The notes under the pieces were generated by a model. That model did not search any database. It was not told where the DNA came from and saw nothing but the letters and a program-made list of their open reading frames with translations. This document shows, in pieces, positions 34,985 to 46,031 of a stretch of 64,000 nucleotides of DNA (within the stretch, counting starts at the first letter, position 1; each line of letters opens with the position of its first letter). The position numbers and the translations under genes were made by a program. This DNA is from Eledone cirrhosa (taxonomy: Eukaryota), in the NCBI GenBank assembly GCA_964016885.1, contig OZ024742.1, positions 326,926,001 through 326,990,000 on the forward strand, written 5' to 3'.

Positions 34985-35590
34985 ATCATCATCATCACCG
35001 TTTTACGTCCGTTCTTCCACGCTAGCATGGGTTAGACGGGTTGTCCTGTTGTGGGCAGTGTCTGGTCGGCTGACCATGCCTTGCTCATACAGGAACTGAT
35101 CTGGCTTGATTTCTACAGCTGGATGCCCCTCCTAACACCAACCTCATTTACAGTGAGTGCTGGGTGCTTTTTCGTGGCGCCTACACGTCCACTTTACAGT
35201 GTGGGCTGGGTGCTTTTTTGCCGTGGCACCTCCACGACCACCTTGCAGTGGGGGGTGTGGGGGCATATTGTCTATATGCTTCAGCTTGTACCCATGGGAG
35301 GTCGGGTACTCTGTATTACTGCGTGACGCCAGAGGTCACGGTCGTGTGTCATTGCCTTTGAGAGGTGTAATTGGGTAAGGTCGGCTTTTATCACCTCATC
35401 CCAGGTCATCTTGGGTCTCCCCACTCCGCGGTTTCCATCGACTTCTAGTGCTCTGCACCTTTTTATGCATTGTCATCCTTCATACGCATCACATGTCCAT
35501 ACCAGCGCAACCGCCTCTCCTGCACACAGCATTTGATTCCTCTTATGCTCAGTCTCTCTCTCAATTCATTTATGCTTTGTCGTTCACGTA
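34985..35590 (-). mobile_element. RTE LINE 3' end (inverted partner of 35823-36955)
   Basis: Near-exact reverse complement of ~36355-36955. Confidence 0.9.
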
Positions 35591-35822
35591 CACACATATA
35601 TCATCATCATCATCACCAATACACACACATATATATACACATACACATATATGTACACACACATATATATATATATATATATAAATACATATACACACAC
35701 ATATATATATACATATATATACACACACACACACATATGTATATACATATATATACACACACACACACACATATGTATATACATACATATACACATACGC
35801 ATATGTATATATACATATATAT

Positions 35823-36955
35823 GTAAGTAGACGAGGAAACAGAACCCAGATCCCCTCAGGGAAATGGCCTTGCTCAGTATGTAGGAAAGGTGTAGGTAGG
35901 AACTCCATTCTCTGCCCCAAATGCAAACAATGGGTACACAAGAGATGTAGCGAGATCTCAGGAAGCTTAATTAAGAATGTAGGATTCACATGCAGCAGCT
36001 GTGCTGAGACAGCAAGCAGCAAACAGCCACAGGAAACAAGTACCACCAATCTCTGGGAGGGCCCTGTAGAAACAGTAGACAGCTTCTGCTACCTCGGTGA
36101 CCAAATTAGCAGCGGAGGTGGGTGTTCAGAAAGTACAATAACTAGGGTAAGAACGGGATGGAAGAAGTTTAGGGAACTACTACCACTGCTAGCTGCAAAA
36201 GGCTTCTCCCTCAGAATGAAAGGCAGACTGTATGATGCATGTATCCAAACAGCGATGTTGCATGGTAGTGAGACCTGGGCACTGAAGGTGGAAGACTTAC
36301 GTAGATTAGAGAGAAACAAAGCCTGCATGCTCCGATGGATGTGTAACAGTAATATACATGAACGACAAAGCATAAATGAATTGAGAGAGACTGAGCATAA
36401 GAGGAATCAAATGCTGTGTGCAGGAGAGGCGGTTGCGCTGGTATGGACATGTGATGCGTATGAAGGATGACAGCTGCATAAAAAGGTGCAGAGCACTAGA
36501 AGTTGATGGAAACCGCGGAGTGGGGAGACCCAAGATGACCTGGGATGAGGTGATAAAAGCCGACCTTACCCAATTACACCTCTCAAAGACAATGACACAC
36601 GACCGTGACTTCTGGCGTCACGCAGTAATACAGAGTACCCGGCCTCCCATGGGTACAAGCTGAAGCATATAAACAATATGCCCCCACACCGCAAGGTGGT
36701 CGTGGAGGTGCCACGGCAAAAAAAGCACCCAGCCCACACTGTAAAGTGGACGTGTAGGCGCCACGAAAAAGCACCCAGCACTCACTGTAAATGAGGTTGG
36801 TGTTAGGAAGGGCATCCAGCTGTAGAAATCAAGCCAGATCAGTTCCTGTATGAGCAAGGCATGGTCAGCTGACCAGACACTGCCCACAACAGGACAACCC
36901 GTCTAACCCATGCTAGCGTGGAAGAACGGACGTAAAACGGTGATGATGATGATGA
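35823..36955 (+). mobile_element. 5'-truncated RTE LINE with PHD finger, RT C-terminus, 3' UTR and (GAT)n tail
   Basis: GKWPCSVCRKGVGRNSILCPKCKQWVHKRC..FTCSSC; VDSFCYLG; MLHGSETW; RRLRWYGHVMR; GRPKMTW; one 2-bp frameshift near 36385. Confidence 0.9.
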
Positions 36956-37056
36956 TATACACACACACACACACACATATATATATACATATACACACAC
37001 ACATATATATACGTACATACATATATTTGCATATATATACACAAATATACACATAC

Positions 37057-37107
<51 letters not shown>

Positions 37108-37429
37108 TATAAAATGTAATATTATACCCATTTAAATCTTGTTTAATATGAAAAATAAATAAAATTCCAGAAATACCGCATATGTGGAGTCATTCTATAT
37201 GTTAGTAACACACATACATACACACACATACACACAGTCACTCTATATGTTAGTAGCATGCACACACACACACACACTGTTTTTACGTCAACTTTTCCAT
37301 GCTAGCATGGGTTGGTCAGGACATTTTCAGGCAATGTTTTACAACCAGATGCCCCTCCTATCGCCAACCCTTTTAGTCACTTCTTATGACTCAGGGATAG
37401 AGAGTACCTAATCTAAACTGGATAAATAA

Positions 37430-37600
37430 TAGTTTCTACTTTTGGCACAAGGCCAGCAATTAACCCAGTGTATTACTGGTACTTTATTTTATTGACCCCG
37501 TAAGGATGAAAGGCAAAGCTAACCTCGGCAGGATTTGAACTCAGATCATGCTGTAAAGCATAGTGTCCGACCCTCTATCGATACTGCCAATCCACCGCCT
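37430..37600 (-). mobile_element. SINE family A
   Basis: Reverse complement of GGCGGTGGATTGGCAGTATCG head and core. Confidence 0.8.
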
Positions 37601-37837
37601 GAACCAGATAGATAATATACATAGATACAACAGACTTCAACATACTTTTAATCTACCGAGTTCCACTCACAAAGTATTGGGATATTTGGTTAACCCATGG
37701 CTATGGTAGAAGACAAATGCTCAATGTGATGTACTGAGTGAAATATTTCAAACTTATATGGCTGTGAAGTAAACTTCTTAACTACACAGCTATGTCTTCT
37801 TGCTCAATGTGACTAGGGTCATCTTAGGTCAGAGATA

Positions 37838-38080
37838 TCATCATGTGCAGAACCAACCAGGTATACAAGTGCCCTCCATAGCTGGTGGTCCCATGCCAGC
37901 CCCTCTGCATCCTCCAAGGTGACGTTGAGCCTCTAGAAATCTTCCTTGATGACATTCAGACATCTGGTTTGGGGTCTGCTGTGGCGCCTCTTCCAGCCTG
38001 TAGCGGCTGTGTCGAACAAGAGTAAAGCTCTGGTAGGATTATCTGGTGGCAGGCAGAGGAAATGTCCATACCAGCCGATG
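37838..38080 (-). mobile_element. Divergent RTE-type LINE 3' remnant
   Basis: GWYGHFLCLPPDNPTRALL...GWKRRHSRPQTRCLNVIKED. Confidence 0.65.
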
Positions 38081-38513
38081 TGGCAGATGGTTATGAGGCA
38101 GGAGGCTGAGGATGCATACATACATACATATCTAGATACACACACACATATTCACAAATATATACACACATTTATACAACCAACTGAAATAGCTTAGTTG
38201 GGAGAGTATTAGACTGGAGCTGTATAGTTCCTTAGAGCAATCCAGAAGTTTGGTATCTGGTGGATTCAAGTCAACAGAGAGCTTTTACGTGGACACACGA
38301 TAAGCTAGAAATAGCAGCTAAATCTTTATTAACACACATTAGCATCTCAAGTAAAAGAAAAATACATTTGGAAATATTTATATACAAAAAGATAGTATGA
38401 TAGTATGATCATGACCAGAACAACTTTGATGTAAATCTGCTCAATCAGAGCTGGCCTAGGGCTAAATAAAAACAACACATATGTATATACCACACACACA
38501 AAGACATCTATAT

Positions 38514-38610
38514 AATAATAATAATGAAATTATTGTGTACAGTGCTCAGGTGCACTAAAACTCATCAAAGATGCATGTATACTACATAGAATAATATATA
38601 CAAATATAAA
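38514..38610 (-). mobile_element. CR1/L2-group 3' tip
   Basis: (AAT)nGAAATTATTGTGTACAGTGCTCAGGTGCACT. Confidence 0.75.
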
Positions 38611-38626
38611 CGCATTAAAGAGAGAT

Positions 38627-38730
38627 TTAACCCTTTAGCATTCACATTACTCTATATATACTATTGTATTTTCATGGTAAAGGCTTTACCTCACATAATA
38701 TCTCACATAATATCGAATCTATGAGATTTT
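38627..38730. mobile_element. Half family P MITE
   Basis: TTAACCCTTTAGCATTCACA... truncated at the start of the 38730-39180 segment. Confidence 0.7.
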
Positions 38731-39234
38731 GAAAGTAAGGTGATAAGACCTTCGCTGTCAGCGGCCCGACTCCACCAAATGTCTCGAACGTCACAGGCTG
38801 GAAAAAATATAACGGTAAAAGAATATATGTTTATTGTGCTACGTTTGATTACAAACTAACAAGTTGTTTCAGGATGTACATACCAGTAAAGGTAGCAGTA
38901 AGCTCGCAGTGGCAAGGAACTGTGTTGTGGTTGAAGTGCTGATAGAAGAATTGCTGTTGGGCCCTTGTCGACAGGGCTGAAGTTTTTTTGCTAAGTGCTA
39001 CACGTCACTAGTGATGCTTCTCTTCCGAGTTACCAGGATCGACTGAGACCAAAGAACTTATCTCACTTTCACCTCGAGCTGACCAGCCAGTCCAGACAAA
39101 ATGACACCAGTTGAAATAAAGAGAAATAGCAGTCTGGTGTCCTTTGGGTGTTAGTGTATGAAGAGATTTCGTTATATACAAATATATTTATATGCGCACT
39201 AATTGCGCACATTACAACTAATATTTTTTATTTT

Positions 39235-39717
<483 letters not shown>

Positions 39718-39842
39718 GAAGTTGAGTAATATTGTAGAACAATAAAATTATGCATAAATCAGATAAGTAGCACTCAACAGTTGGTAGAACCGGAGTATAT
39801 ATAATAAAGATGAAATAAAGATGGTTATAAGAGTTCCATATA

Positions 39843-39905
39843 TTTTATTATACGTATTTCGAATACAAAATCATCCTGGGACAGATGTGTTCTCTTCAGA
39901 TAAAA
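39843..39905 (-). ncRNA. Type I hammerhead ribozyme (Penelope/retrozyme-like), intact core
   Basis: Minus strand TTTTAT-CTGAAGA-GAACACA..TGTATTC-GAA-ATACGTAT-A-ATAAAA: 6-bp stem I, G10.1-C11.1 stem II, palindromic stem III, AUA cleavage triplet. Confidence 0.75.
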
Positions 39906-40053
39906 AATAAAGTACAATGATATGAGACATAATAGCACTTGTTCATAGGAAAGTGCTAAGTCTACATATATATATATGTAGATATATATATATGTAGACT
40001 TAACACTTTCCTATGAACAAGTGCTATTATGTCCCATATCATTGTACCTTATT

Positions 40054-40119
40054 TTTTATCTGAAGAGAACACAACATCTGTCCCAGGATGATTTTGTATT
40101 CGAAATATGTATAATAAAA
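40054..40119 (+). ncRNA. Type I hammerhead ribozyme, inverted copy
   Basis: TTTTAT-CTGAAGA-GAACACAACATC..GATGATTTTGTATTC-GAA-ATATGTAT-A-ATAAAA. Confidence 0.7.
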
Positions 40120-40158
40120 TATATGGAACACTTATAACCATGTTTATTTCATCTTTTT

Positions 40159-40958
40159 TAGTTCTATCGTTACTTTGGTATATATTGTGTGTTAGATTCC
40201 GCCTACCACAATGTTCGATTTGTCAAGCTATTTAAACGTATGTTATTACTCTAAGGCCCCAACTTATCGAGTGCTTTGCTAACTCATCATTTCATATAAG
40301 TAGGCCGAATTTACTTGCAAACCGCCAGAGATTCGATTTTACTATTTTCCAATTATATTATTCTCTTAGATTTAATAATTAGACAATTCTGTTGATTGGT
40401 TAATTATTTGTGTTTGTTTAATAACATCTAGTTGAGAGCTTATCATGATGATTAGCGGAAATTAAAATATTTCCTTTGTCTAACATTTTGAATGACCTGC
40501 CAAAAACCGAGGGTTATTTCCCTTGCCGGAATTAACACATGACAGCTATAGATACAATTCGCAGCATATATAGCTGCAACATATAGCTTATCACTTCGGT
40601 CCTTGGTAGAACGAAAAACCTGTTGAAAAACTGAATCCTCCGTTCGATCATGAATACCTCGAGCTTGCCAGTCACGTAAGTCTGATATTTGATTTCGGAT
40701 TCAAAGAAACACTTTAAACGATTGATCATTTGATTTGTCCAGGTGTATTTTTCTCAACCTGATTAGTTCTATCGTTACTTTGGTATATATTGTGTGTTAG
40801 ATTCGCCTACCACAATGTTCGATTTGTCAAGCTATTTAAACGTAAGTTATTACTCTAAAGCTCCAACTTATCAAGTGCTTTGCTAACTGATCATTTCATA
40901 TAAGTAGGCCGAATTTACTTGCAAACCGCCAGAGATTCGATTTTACTATTTTCCAATT
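40159..40958 (+). repeat. ~197-bp direct repeats (40159-40355 and 40764-40958), ~605-bp period
   Basis: TAGTTCTATCGTTACTTTGG...CTATTTTCCAATTA present twice with few differences. Confidence 0.9.
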
Positions 40959-40969
40959 AAATATATATA

Positions 40970-41357
40970 TCATCATCATCATCATTTTACGTCTGCTTTT
41001 CCCTGCTTGCATGGGTGGGACAGGAACTGATTCTGGGTTGATTTCTACAGCTGGATGCCCTTCCTAACACCAACCTCATTTACAGTGAGTGCTGGGTGCT
41101 TTTTTGCCGTGGCACCTCCACGACCACTTTACAGTGTGGGCTGGGTGCTTTTTTGCCGTGGCACCTCCACGACCACTTTGCAGTGGAATGATAGGGACCC
41201 CAGTCCCTATCATCTCATTTCTACAGCTGAGTAAACTGGAGCAAATGTGAAATAAAGTGTCTTGCTCAAGGAAACAACATATCACCTGGTCTGAGAATTG
41301 AACTCACAACCTTTTGATTGCAAGGCCAATGCTCTAACCACTAAGCCATGTGCCTCC
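40970..41357 (-). mobile_element. SINE family B, full length
   Basis: Reverse complement of 24225-24616. Confidence 0.9.
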
Positions 41358-42030
41358 ATATATATATATATATGTATATATGCAAACACATTAACCACAC
41401 ATAAATAGATATATGCACAAATATATAGACACACACAAACACCAACATGGTAAAGTCAAAATGATGACACACTCATATATAGTGGTATTATAGGCAAGAG
41501 TTTACTGATGATTAAATATTAATCATTTTAGTTTATTTAATTACTTATGATTCAAACTATATATGTTTGACCACAAAAGAATGTTTTACTCCTTAAATTA
41601 TGGCATTTTTAAAAATGAAGCTTTTAATTAGCATTACACAATTAATGACAGTATTGCTATAGCTACAAAATAAATGTCACTTTTAAAACATTTGTGTACT
41701 GCGTGTATTTTTCATGACACCAGCATTACCACATTACAGAGTGGACTTGGTGCAGGGTGCATTTGATTGTGGCATCAGCACTAGAGAGGTTATCACATGT
41801 TTGACAAAACTGAAGTCATCTCAAACTCTGTATTGTATGTGTTCATATCATCATCATCACTGTTTAGTGTTCATTTTTCCATGCTTGCATGGGTTAGACG
41901 GGTCCTCCAGATCAGGAGACAAATCTGGACATCAGGAGACAAATCTGGACAGAATTAGCCATACTGTACCTTGCTCCAATGAGGACTGTAAATTTGGCTG
42001 GGGATTTTACAGCTGTTCATATATTTATAG

Positions 42031-42198
42031 CAGGTTTTCGAAACCTTTTTCAAACACAGAACCCTTTTTGGTTCAGAAACGTTTGGGGTAACCCTAAAGT
42101 CTAATACTGTTATATGGTCGTAATATAAATATATTCCTCTACCTTTTTTTCATGGAACTCCCGACACTAGTTTGTGGAACCCACTTTGGGAACCACTG
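42031..42198. mobile_element. hAT (Charlie-like) MITE
   Basis: CAGGTTTTCGAAA ... TTTGGGAACCACTG; perfect 8-bp TSD ATTTATAG. Confidence 0.8.
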
Positions 42199-42602
42199 AT
42201 TTATAGAATAAAATTATCGGTTCGACGATGAATGTTTTAATTGTCTGGTCAACAAAACAGCCAGGTCATGAAATAAAATTGCAAGCACCTGACCACTCTA
42301 CAGTCACGTGCATCCCTACACAATTCTCCAATTCTCAAAGAGATTCAGCATGACACACTGAGTGATAAGGCTAGCACATTTAATTATGAGTACAGTCCTT
42401 CCAACAGGTTTTCAAACATTTTGTCTACCTGGTTTTACTAACAAGGCATGGTTTGATCTGAGACTATGGTAAATGACATTTGCCCAAGAAGCCATGTAGT
42501 GGGATCAAACACAAGACCTAATGATTGTGAAACAAACTTCTCAACTATTCGGCCATACTGCCTCAGCATGTGCATGAGAGAGAGACAGAGAGAGAGAGGG
42601 AG

Positions 42603-42673
<71 letters not shown>

Positions 42674-42727
42674 GCGTGTGTGCGTGTGTGTGCGTGTGTG
42701 CGTGTGTGTGTGTGCACGTGTCTGCGT

Positions 42728-42890
42728 AAAAGGTAAACAGAAATAACAAAACAAATGGCACAGTATATGGAAGGAATATATTAGTTTAACGATTGAAATA
42801 GCAGGAAGAGCGTCTTAACGTTTCGGACGCTAATCCTTTATCAGAAGAAAGAATGAGAAATTAAAGAAGAAATAAAAAGATTGAGGAGAC
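42728..42890 (-). mobile_element. Penelope-like pseudo-LTR remnant with decayed minimal hammerhead (42813-42848)
   Basis: Minus strand TCTT-CTGATAA-AGGATTAGCGTCC-GAAACGTT-AAGA; homologous to 53543-53720. Confidence 0.6.
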
Positions 42891-43280
42891 AGACTGGAAA
42901 GCCTGGTTATTTCTTTTGGAAGAAACAGTTCTAATCCTGTAGAAGCCATTTCTATATTAAATTTGATGTTTATACTCTACTAATGCATGGAGTACCTTAC
43001 TGAGGTTACCCTCGATTGAACCTGGGACTCACATATATGTGTGTGTATATGAGTATGTGTGTGTGTATGTGTGTGTGAAAGAGTGTGTGGAGGTATGTGT
43101 GTGTCTAGTGAAATAGAAGAATCCAGCAACAAGTGGTTTAAGCCAACACAACACGCCACATAACACAAGATATACTAATAATTAGGTAGATAGAAAGTTA
43201 CTGCAGGCAATGACTGATCTCTTGACAGAGAAGGATGAAGACAACAACAAGCTGCACAAGCAGTGACAGTAGTTGTTACT

Positions 43281-43380
43281 GGTGGTGGTGATGGTGGTGG
43301 TGGTGGTGGTGGTGGTGGTGGTGGTGGTGGTGGTGGTGGTGGTGGTGGTGGTGGTGGTGGTGGTGGTGGTGGTGGTGATG
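43281..43380. repeat. (GGT)n microsatellite
   Basis: Direct reading. Confidence 0.95.
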
Positions 43381-43619
43381 GTAGTGGTTGGGGAGAATGA
43401 TATGGATGGGGAAGTCGATGTTTCTGGTAGTGGTAGTAGTAGTGATTGTGGTAGTGGTTGTAATTGTGGAGTGATATGGATGGTGGTAGTGTTGATGGAG
43501 TGGGAGGAGGGGTATGGAGGAGCTGGTGGTGTAGATATTGGTTGTGTTGGTGATGGTGTTGGTGATGGTTTCAATGTGGATGGTGGTGGTGTTGATGGAG
43601 GAAGAGTGATGTGGATGGT

Positions 43620-44670
43620 AGGACTGGCAACGTTGGTGGTTGTGTTAGTGGTGATGGTAATAGTGGTGGTGTTGATGGAGGGGGGGGGACTGATGGTTGT
43701 GTTGGTGGTTGTGTTAGTGGTGGTGTTGATGGAGGGGGGGACTGATGGTTGTGTTGCTGATGGTGGTTGTGTTAGTGGTGATGGTAATAGTGGTGGTGTT
43801 GATGGAGGGGGGGGACTGATGGTTGTGTTGGTGGTTGTGTTAGTGGTGGTGTTGATGGAGGGGGGGACTGATGGTTGTGTTGGTGGTTGTGTTAGTGGTG
43901 ATGGTAATAGTGGTGGTGTTGATGGAGGGGGGACTGATGGTTGTGTTGGTGGTTGTGTTAGTGGTGATGGTAATAGTGGTGGTGTTGATGGAGGGGGGAC
44001 TGATGGTTGTGTTGCTGATGGTGGTTGTGTTAGTGGTGATGGTAATAGTGGTGGTGTTGATGGAGGGGGGGGACTGATGGTTGTGTTGGTGGTTGTGTTA
44101 GTGGTGATGGTAATAGTGGTGGTGTTGATGGAGGGGGGGGGGGGCTGATGGTTGTGTTGGTGGTTGTGTTAGTGGTGATGGTAATAGTGGTGGTGTTGAT
44201 GGAGGGGGGGGGACTGATGGTTGTGTTGGTGGTTGTGTTAGTGGTGGTGTTAATGGAGGGGGGGACTGATGGTTGTGTTGGTGGTTGTGTTAGTGGTGAT
44301 GGTAATAGTGGTGGTGTTGATGGAGGGGGGGACTGATGGTTGTGTTGGTGGTTGTGTTAGTGGTGATGGTAATAGTGGTGGTGTTGATGGAGGGGGGGAC
44401 TGATGGTTGTGTTGATGGAGGGGGGGACTGATGGTTGTGTTGGTGGTTGTGTTAGTGGTGATGGTAATAGTGGTGGTGTTGATGGAGGGGGGGGACTGAT
44501 GGTTGTGTTGGTGGTTGTGTTAGTGGTGGTGTTGATGGAGGGGGGGACTGATGGTTGTGTTGGTGGTTGTGTTAGTGGTGATGGTAATAGTGGTGGTGTT
44601 GATGGAGGGGGGGGACTGATGGTTGTGTTGGTGGTTGTGTTAGTGGTGATGGTAATAGTGGTGGTGTTAA
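43620..44670 (+). repeat. G/T-rich minisatellite, ~66-bp unit with ~51- and ~75-bp variants
   Basis: GGACTGATGGTTGTGTTGGTGGTTGTGTTAGTGGTGATGGTAATAGTGGTGGTGTTGATGGAG(G)n, about 16 units. Confidence 0.9.
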
Positions 44671-46031
44671 TTGTGGGCGGTTGTGATGGCGCTGGTGTTC
44701 ATGTCAATGGTGGTGTTGGTGATGATGTTGATGTTAATGATGGAGATGTTGTTGAAGTGGGTGTTATAGGTGGAGCTGCTGGGCATGAAAATGGTAAAAT
44801 GGTAAGAGAATACCTAGTATTAAATATTGCCTTCTTATTTAGGCACAAGGCCAAACATTTCACTTTTTTTGTTTTACTTTACTTTTGTTTATAATTTTGT
44901 TCTGTAGTGGGAGGAAGTAAACTTAATTGAATCAAGTGTGTGTGTGGTGTGTGTGTGGTGTGTGTGTGGTGTGTGTGTGGTGTGTGTGTGGTGTGTGTGG
45001 TGTGTGTGGTGTGTGTGGTGTGTGGTGTGTGGTGTGTGGTGTGTGTGTGTGTGTACATTTAAGATGCATGCATATATCATTATTATCATTTTATGCATGG
45101 TTTCTGTGCTGGTATGGGTTTGACAGATTTCCAGAGTCCAAGATTAAATGTGTTGGAAACCACGTCTTGTTCATGCATTCCATTTTTGGCATGATTTTTA
45201 TAGCTGTCTGTCTGTGTCTGTGTGTATGTGTGTGTGTGAATATATATGTATGTATGCACCTTGGACATCTTAATTACAGATAACAGTTTCTTGGGTGGTT
45301 ATAGAAATAAACCATCATCACCGAGTTTAACATCGCCACCTGGTCTTTCAGTACTTTCAGAGGAGTTCATTCTATTGCAAGCATTCAAGCCAGGTTTCAG
45401 ATTTGTCAGAGGAAGAAGAGCAGTGCCATAATCCATTGCAGGGCCTCCAAAACTTCAGAAAGTTAGTTATATAACTAAAATCTTCCAAAAAATTTTGAAT
45501 TTTTTTCAAAATTAGTTGAAAAGCATAAAAAATATGGTAACGAAAGGGTTTACTTGATAGAGTCGAAATTTTATCACAGTTAAATTCTAGCTGATAGATA
45601 GATAGCTAGTTCGTAATTTTCAAGATTAACAGAGCAAATACCTTGTGATGCTTGTTCTAGCTCTCTGAGCTCTGAGTTCAGATCCTGCCAAGATCGACTG
45701 GAACACTTTATCCTTTCTGGATTAATATCAGAGCATTGGATAAGATGCCTTGCATTACTAGTTCTAGTACTTTGCATTTTGAGTTCAAATCCCTCTGTGA
45801 TCTTCATGGGTGGTAGGCTTAATCTGTCACCCAGTTTAAAGCCACCACTTGGTTTTGGGGGTATCTTTAGTAGAGTCCACTCAGTTGTAAGTATTTAAGC
45901 CAGATTTCCAGTTTAAGGCTACCTTCCTTCCTTCCACCCACCAGACTCAGAGATCCTAAAAAGAGCCACAGACACCACCCTTTCCATCCCTGACTAAATA
46001 ATAAGAAACCTATTTAAGCCAGATCTCTAGT

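Follow-up and report, generated by a model that had tools for sequence, protein, structure and literature searches.

Penelope-like elements (PLEs) of the Hydra clade combine a C-terminal GIY-YIG endonuclease lacking the CCHH motif with DKT, CxCX5C, CxxC and CxH motifs, insertion into (TA)n and a type I hammerhead ribozyme near the 3' end (PMC8557442). In one of them, Penelope-13_HM, a 5'-truncated inverted copy places a hammerhead on each strand (PMC8557442). Opposite-strand hammerhead pairs, 100-700 bp apart, are also known from Schistosoma, and the minimal hammerheads of metazoan PLEs have been described with type I topology, a longer helix II, a palindromic helix III and a dimer model of action (PMC4209133). 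The Penelopes of Adineta vaga show head-to-head inverted pseudo-LTRs (pLTRs), one of which may bear a tail; palindromes are found where they meet, the ORF contains Asn-rich inserts and the pLTR an Inr-like motif (PMC3846280). In Poseidon of Anolis carolinensis, two internal start sites of reverse transcription downstream of the hammerhead set the tail (PMC11167929). Finally, metazoan non-LTR retrozymes are ORF-less, hammerhead-bearing and PLE-related, and are organized as head-to-tail arrays of monomers (PMC7229834; 10.64898/2026.07.22.740005).

The window (the whole 64-kb stretch of DNA analysed) contains a foldback that, together with its family, resembles each of these systems in the features just listed, the monomer arrays of retrozymes excepted. 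We consider it very probable that this foldback represents two 5'-truncated, head-to-head, hammerhead-bearing ends of a Hydra-type Penelope-like retrotransposon, likely from one insertion into (TA)n, and that it is probably inert debris in which a hairpin would block the ribozymes. The layout itself is already in print, both as 5'-truncated inverted pLTRs with a one-sided tail (PMC8557442, PMC3846280) and as opposite-strand hammerheads (PMC4209133). Unlike the insertions of Adineta vaga (PMC3846280), the window copy has no ORF, and the TA tract makes any target-site duplication unreadable. The family and its long stem II were not found in the openly searchable literature, Repbase-type libraries and most subscription papers aside.

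The foldback was first proposed from the letters alone, and its arms are indeed complementary: they pair over 92 nt at 97% (39886-39977 with 39982-40073) and over 87 nt at 95% (39802-39888 with 40074-40160), two blocks of a single structure of ~359 bp divided by a 3-nt indel. Some of its proposed limits had to be redrawn. The left arm has a further 84-nt tail, which reaches 39718 and ends in (TA)n, the presumed TA spacer is a TA-rich filler of 20 nt, and the right arm is present but clipped by a different repeat that begins at ~+100, so its original end is unreadable. Coordinates of this kind are given relative to the hammerhead C3 (position 0). Both arms begin at -70, and the left one runs from there to the long end; in full-length copies, the sequence of the tail is the 5' UTR ahead of the ORF. 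Over 171 columns the arms differ by seven substitutions and one 3-nt gap, which argues against a mirror artefact of assembly. When 39716-40400 was compared with three sets of contigs and a set of DNA reads, related pieces of the family appeared and no record crossed the centre, a result that counts neither for nor against the join.

Table 1. Features of the foldback and its immediate surroundings (positions in the window).
Feature	Position	Strand	Remarks
(TA)n target tract	39693..39717	.	Left edge of insertion; 3' ends of the family nearly always run into (TA)n
One-sided tail	39718..39801	-	Element ~+101 to +185 relative to C3
Left arm	39802..39969	-	pLTR fragment from -70, with left hammerhead
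Left type I hammerhead motif	39843..39905	-	Stem I UUUUAU/AUAAAA, CUGAAGA, GAAA, C3 39899, 32-nt stem II
Left stem III palindrome AUACGUAU	39857-39850	-	Predicted cut after 39849
Junction filler	39970..39989	.	TA-rich, includes a 16-bp tandem duplication, separates the two 5'-truncated ends
Right arm	39990..40160	+	pLTR fragment -70 to ~+100, clipped by neighbouring repeat
Right type I hammerhead motif	40054..40119	+	Stem I 40054-40059, C3 40060, 35-nt stem II
Right stem III AUAUGUAU	40105-40112	+	Predicted cut after 40113
Separate ~605-bp-period repeat	40158..40962	+	Partial tandem, abuts right arm, outside foldback

Each arm carries one type I hammerhead motif, as had been claimed. The window has exactly two matches to the search pattern CTGANGA-N10-40-GAAA-N4-12-ATAAA, one in each arm (0.08 matches expected), and none of 100 shuffles reaches two. 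Both motifs contain CUGANGA, GAAA and NUH and have three stems in type I order. The right stem III, AUAUGUAU, is one transition away from the family-majority AUACGUAU, and the left stem II is weakened by a 3-nt deletion. A dedicated hammerhead search had been suggested by the first-pass annotation. Searched with positions 35000-45000 at E<=10, Rfam returned 79 matches, none of them to a hammerhead family; these were hairpin-type miRNA models only, below their gathering scores. In isolation the arms fold no better than shuffled sequences (z -0.43 to +0.85). Compared with the Hydra clade, the stem II region is long (35 nt; a count by eye from the published table gives ~10-26 nt) and stem III is an 8-nt perfect palindrome rather than 4 bp with a 1-2 nt loop (PMC8557442). 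Stem II is also longer than in the metazoan minimal hammerheads (PMC4209133), and its 3-bp closing helix is followed by a conserved mismatch, seen in 18 of 21 variants.

The arm is the 3' end (pLTR) of a dispersed Penelope-like retrotransposon. In the 3.0-Gb genome from which the window comes, it has at least 46 matches, 89-100% identical, from the 40 candidates scored out of 642, and a 23-letter piece taken from the core and stem II is found unchanged 40 times, with a control at 0. Several copies extend kilobases upstream of the arm, where stop-to-stop frames encode a reverse transcriptase (RT; DIASYY, YRDD) and a GIY-YIG domain with CNCPIRTNC, CNLC and LCNH. A parent ORF with RT and GIY-YIG had been predicted beforehand, as had the class of the locus (type I motifs with a palindromic stem III in the inverted pLTRs of a PLE), and both predictions held, the ORF lying upstream of the same arm in other copies in the genome. 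One copy, L037, is a near full-length pLTR-ORF-pLTR unit with direct pLTRs and the motif SDKTNNLY. Its ORF begins with MDYY ~215 nt past C3, and its pLTRs are spaced 3918 bp apart, a short insert included; the arrays of a sister family are spaced at 3692-3918 bp.

This sister family, found by a protein search of the genome, is 73-74% identical and has open frames of 821 residues in exact tandem and inverted arrays. Its ORF is 68% identical to an own-family frame. The loci of this Hydra-type family (L056-L060, e.g. L058 and L059) show near-identical head-to-tail arrays of ~3.9 kb and a full-length inverted pair, and the family is likely young and recently active. The three PDB entries that best match a structure model of its ORF (mean pLDDT 72, 13 sequences) are all of telomerase RT (E 6e-8 to 2e-7). 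Sequence searches were less telling: for eight element proteins, Pfam gave no RT or GIY-YIG match and a PDB sequence search was uninformative. PF26215 is listed for 11 of 15 homologue hits, and the Pfam search of the element proteins did not return it.

With a telomerase-related RT and a GIY-YIG endonuclease in one ORF upstream of the pLTR, and with pLTRs in tandem or inverted order, 5' truncation and an optional tail, the element has the makeup of the endonuclease-bearing (EN+) PLEs. By its motifs it fits the Hydra clade. Own-family frames contain the CxCX5C linker (CNCPIRTNC) before the endonuclease; the endonuclease has no CCHH, VYEC and YIG being ~11 residues apart without C or H, and carries CxxC (CNLC) and CxH (LCNH) near its end; DKG is replaced by DKT (SDKTNNLY) in L037 and in sister frames; and insertions fall in (TA)n, the left end in the window included. 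At the RWK position, the sister family reads RLRWT and L037 RLR-stop-I, while RWK is found in most database relatives that cover the position. The element departs from the published clade in having a partly kept RWK (RW without K), a tail of ~80 rather than 30-40 nt, an Asn-rich linker, a long 3' UTR and a unit of ~3.7-3.9 kb rather than <3 kb, a length that the source words descriptively as 'generally short' (PMC8557442). When compared by eye, its N-terminal and RT motifs run parallel to those of the published octopus family Hydra-1_Obim; its protein is homologous but appears distinct and its hammerhead sequence differs, so that we regard the family, on these sequences, as a separate one. A more distant Hydra-type element (L032:5980-7999, minus strand, ~68% DNA identity) with RT and GIY-YIG frames lies a few kilobases upstream of an own-family copy.

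The ends of the family copies are informative about how the foldback may have arisen. We collected 59 own-family segments (some loci are counted twice, and one long-end segment is a 5' pLTR that continues into the ORF) against a reference that stopped at +185. Their 3' ends are sharply bimodal, at +106/107 in 26 and at +180-185 in 27, nearly all running into (TA)n; the other six have different ends, which in two cases coincide with the limit of the fetched stretch. The predicted ribozyme cut (+53) is the end point of none of the 59. Both fixed ends (+106 and +185) sit at short TA/AT runs of the element. At the 5' side, seven of the 59 segments (five independent events) start at a hot spot at -70/-71, a count to be read with the knowledge that the copy-search query began at -70 and so favoured copies that reach it; sister families also start at -70 to -72. 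A 16-letter pattern has 280 matches, which include sister families and do not amount to a copy number. On contig 1, taken as an unselected census, 12 of 34 pattern loci belong to the own family and represent 10 independent events; in four of these, an inverted piece occupies the 5' end. Among the 30 best arm matches (25 independent insertions) there are four short foldbacks with both hammerhead regions and two more with long inverted copies.

In our preferred reading, these observations are accounted for as follows. The endonuclease of the element would cut both strands of a TA tract, and each cut end would serve as primer for copying one source RNA, starting from one or other of its two internal start sites. 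The resulting short cDNAs would halt near -70 and be joined head to head at their AT-rich ends. We infer this route from the behaviour of Poseidon in vitro, where two adjacent RT start sites are used, both strands are cleaved and extended with uncleaved RNA as template, and ribozyme cleavage is not needed (PMC11167929). The analogy has its limits: in Poseidon, the start site and the target share no homology, whereas both ends here lie at TA/AT runs resembling (TA)n, and Poseidon belongs to a different clade (PMC11167929). In the parent element, the hammerhead likely acts as a dimer, through its palindromic stem III, in tandem transcripts. Twin priming at both broken ends accounts for pairs whose arms do not overlap, such as +185>+151 joined to -70>+106.

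A single source for both arms is indicated by the variant -45A>G, which they have in common and which is absent from the other 52 of 54 copies. Private variants common to both arms occur in six of 13 inverted pairs, this pair included. An origin of the arms from two templates, considered because of the 3-nt indel, was rejected on the same grounds. If, instead, two separate insertions had landed head to head in one TA tract, the TA-rich filler at the centre would be explained, the family does target (TA)n, and nested insertions of several families in TA tracts are common in the fetched loci. Given the private variant and the shared start at -70, we hold this to be very unlikely. Common private variants also fit self-priming by snap-back or later gene conversion between arms. 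In the former case, the cDNA would have folded at CATATG (-70) and copied itself, or self-primed on an antisense template, as argued in PMC3846280. This alternative is a fair rival where break points are equal, as in this pair, and we rate it as less likely than twin priming: the arms start at the same base, beside a 6-nt palindrome, and equal break points are also seen in L111 (-16/-16) and L103 (-26/-26), but the centre in the window has extra filler instead of a clean hairpin loop, and snap-back is impossible for pairs with non-overlapping arms (+185>+151/-70>+106; +184>+115/-66>+106), which we read as twin priming.

Could the palindrome itself be the mobile unit, a MITE-like foldback or a retrozyme amplified as such? 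It is short and ORF-less with long terminal inverted repeats, and several similar short palindromes exist in the genome. The junctions speak against this, since they differ in every pair examined (-70/-70, -51/-70, -16/-16, +31/-71, +151/-70 and -35/-103), so that the palindrome was not amplified as a unit and the fixed ends and centre of a MITE are missing. Nor does it match a retrozyme, that is, a head-to-tail array of ORF-less monomers (PMC7229834; 10.64898/2026.07.22.740005): the two motifs form a single inverted pair at truncated ends, copies of an autonomous family carry an ORF in line with the arm, and no tandem monomer array of the arm was found among the fetched loci. Moreover, in the contig-1 census two complete hammerheads are seen together in none of the own-family insertions (10 independent events). 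We therefore find a mobile palindrome hardly credible, and continue to favour paired truncated ends from one insertion. Long and short ends are combined in nine of 13 readable pairs, with about half expected, which is not clearly above chance; four more pairs, the one in the window included, are unreadable. On a published scale in which a distance of 0.09 corresponds to 25 million years (PMC13282606), the ~2% divergence per arm would place the insertion, roughly, at 5-6 million years ago.

A few further observations concern individual copies. A second recurrent break point, at +30/+31 within stem II, is found in the inverted arm of L008, L093, L109 and L115. One fragment (L112, about 1984-2107) starts at ~+51, near the predicted ribozyme cut (+54). 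The contig-1 loci L003-L005, separated by as much as 1.3 Mb, have one insertion and its flanks in common and thus form a segmental triplication.

The wider set of motifs points to selection on the hammerhead. A descriptor that makes no demand on stem III finds 88 distinct motif strings in 115 loci (514,763 bases) and no match in three shuffles; the stem III palindrome is perfect in 57 of the 88, or 78 if G-U pairs are permitted. Covariation was assessed in 21 variants with a 6-nt stem III insert by permuting partners 5000 times. The unselected stem II pairs (positions 5-8) number 62, against 48.8 +/- 3.3 when permuted, and the stem III pairs 61, against 47.9 +/- 2.3; in neither case did any of the 5000 permutations reach the observed value. 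Because the search itself demanded stem I and the three initial pairs of stem II, and because the variants are related to one another, the permutation numbers are not probabilities. Stem II varies in length from 20 to 48 nt, and its position 4 is mismatched in 18 of the 21 variants. At least 21 hammerhead variants in the fetched loci (L001-L115) have a 3-bp closing helix, a position-4 mismatch (mostly C with C, U or A) and then a long further helix, a region that may be a tertiary docking site for stem I.

Within the family the picture is different. The first-pass annotation had tied its reading to core conservation or stem covariation in homologous copies. Covariation is present across sister families, but own-family copies keep the core no better than the flanks (25 of 610 letters off the majority versus 132 of 4189), and it is intact in 29 of 45 copies in which it is covered. 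A motif that covaries across families while inserted copies decay like their flanks argues that selection acts in active lineages and not on inserted copies.

It had also been proposed that a read-through transcript of the locus acts as a natural switch, in which cleavage by the ribozyme competes with folding into the hairpin. In its favour, both cores in the window are intact and the motif covaries across families. At the family rate of ~64%, two intact cores out of two are unremarkable, and the core shows no selection at the level of the locus. The in silico folding leaves the proposal with next to no plausibility. Since the arms are head to head, the antisense arm is transcribed first in read-through RNA of either strand, and ~100 bp (-119 and -134 kcal/mol) are already paired as the sense C3 emerges. 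The full hairpin reaches -252/-258 kcal/mol and the best fold that preserves a ribozyme -155/-166, a gap of 97/92 kcal/mol in favour of the hairpin. A monomer hammerhead folds near zero (-2.9 and +0.4 kcal/mol). The dimer helix is -6.5 kcal/mol for the left palindrome and weak, at -2.2, for the right, and the left stem II is short by 3 nt. With one sense ribozyme per strand and an unstable monomer stem III, no dimer is possible in cis. For single minimal PLE hammerheads cleavage was not detectable, and dimers had low activity (PMC4209133); the Poseidon ribozyme required protein (PMC11167929). The order of the arms and the energy gap thus argue that read-through RNA would be plain dsRNA. In this folding model, it would form a ~175-bp duplex, a likely substrate for dsRNA editing or silencing, with no working ribozyme.

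The only route to a free sense ribozyme would be transcription from the centre of the foldback. Position -70 is the A of a TCA that is retained in sister families, and this TCA resembles the initiator (Inr) consensus. Penelope has an internal promoter (PMC2377424). If -70 were a transcription start, the stubs would copy the 5' end of the RNA, and the foldback would contain back-to-back promoters whose outward sense RNAs could form a dimer in trans through stem III. Sense-only RNAs would then escape the hairpin, turning the locus into a two-piece ribozyme of the long-stem-II hammerhead variant. We offer this as an improbable speculation, and the palindrome CATATG or the TA-likeness of the site accounts for the -70 hot spot equally well.

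The locus itself is minor: its layout and its retrotransposon clade are both known, and decaying stubs of this sort are numerous. For specialists, the family has some use through its young sister family, its two sharp 3' ends and its at least 21 long-stem-II hammerhead variants. Together these provide material for testing RT priming at both broken ends and the role of the hammerhead in PLEs (PMC11167929, PMC8557442).

Several neighbouring sequences were seen alongside the foldback. The ~605-bp repeat that abuts the right arm has no ORF; its 3' end is fixed and runs into (TA)n, while its 5' truncation varies. There are 3369 first-look candidates, and a multi-unit array lies on contig 28. Its stretch in the window was checked for a hammerhead core and contains none that is canonical. 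It behaves like a non-autonomous element that uses the same TA-targeting machinery. An 87-bp direct repeat (38512-38598 and 39241-39327, 95% identical) surrounds ~640 bp with LINE-like RT remnants. Further along, on the minus strand, an apparently unbroken stop-to-stop frame of 1042 residues (58476-61604) reads as a LINE endonuclease and RT, with a 375-residue frame (61484-62611) upstream of it.
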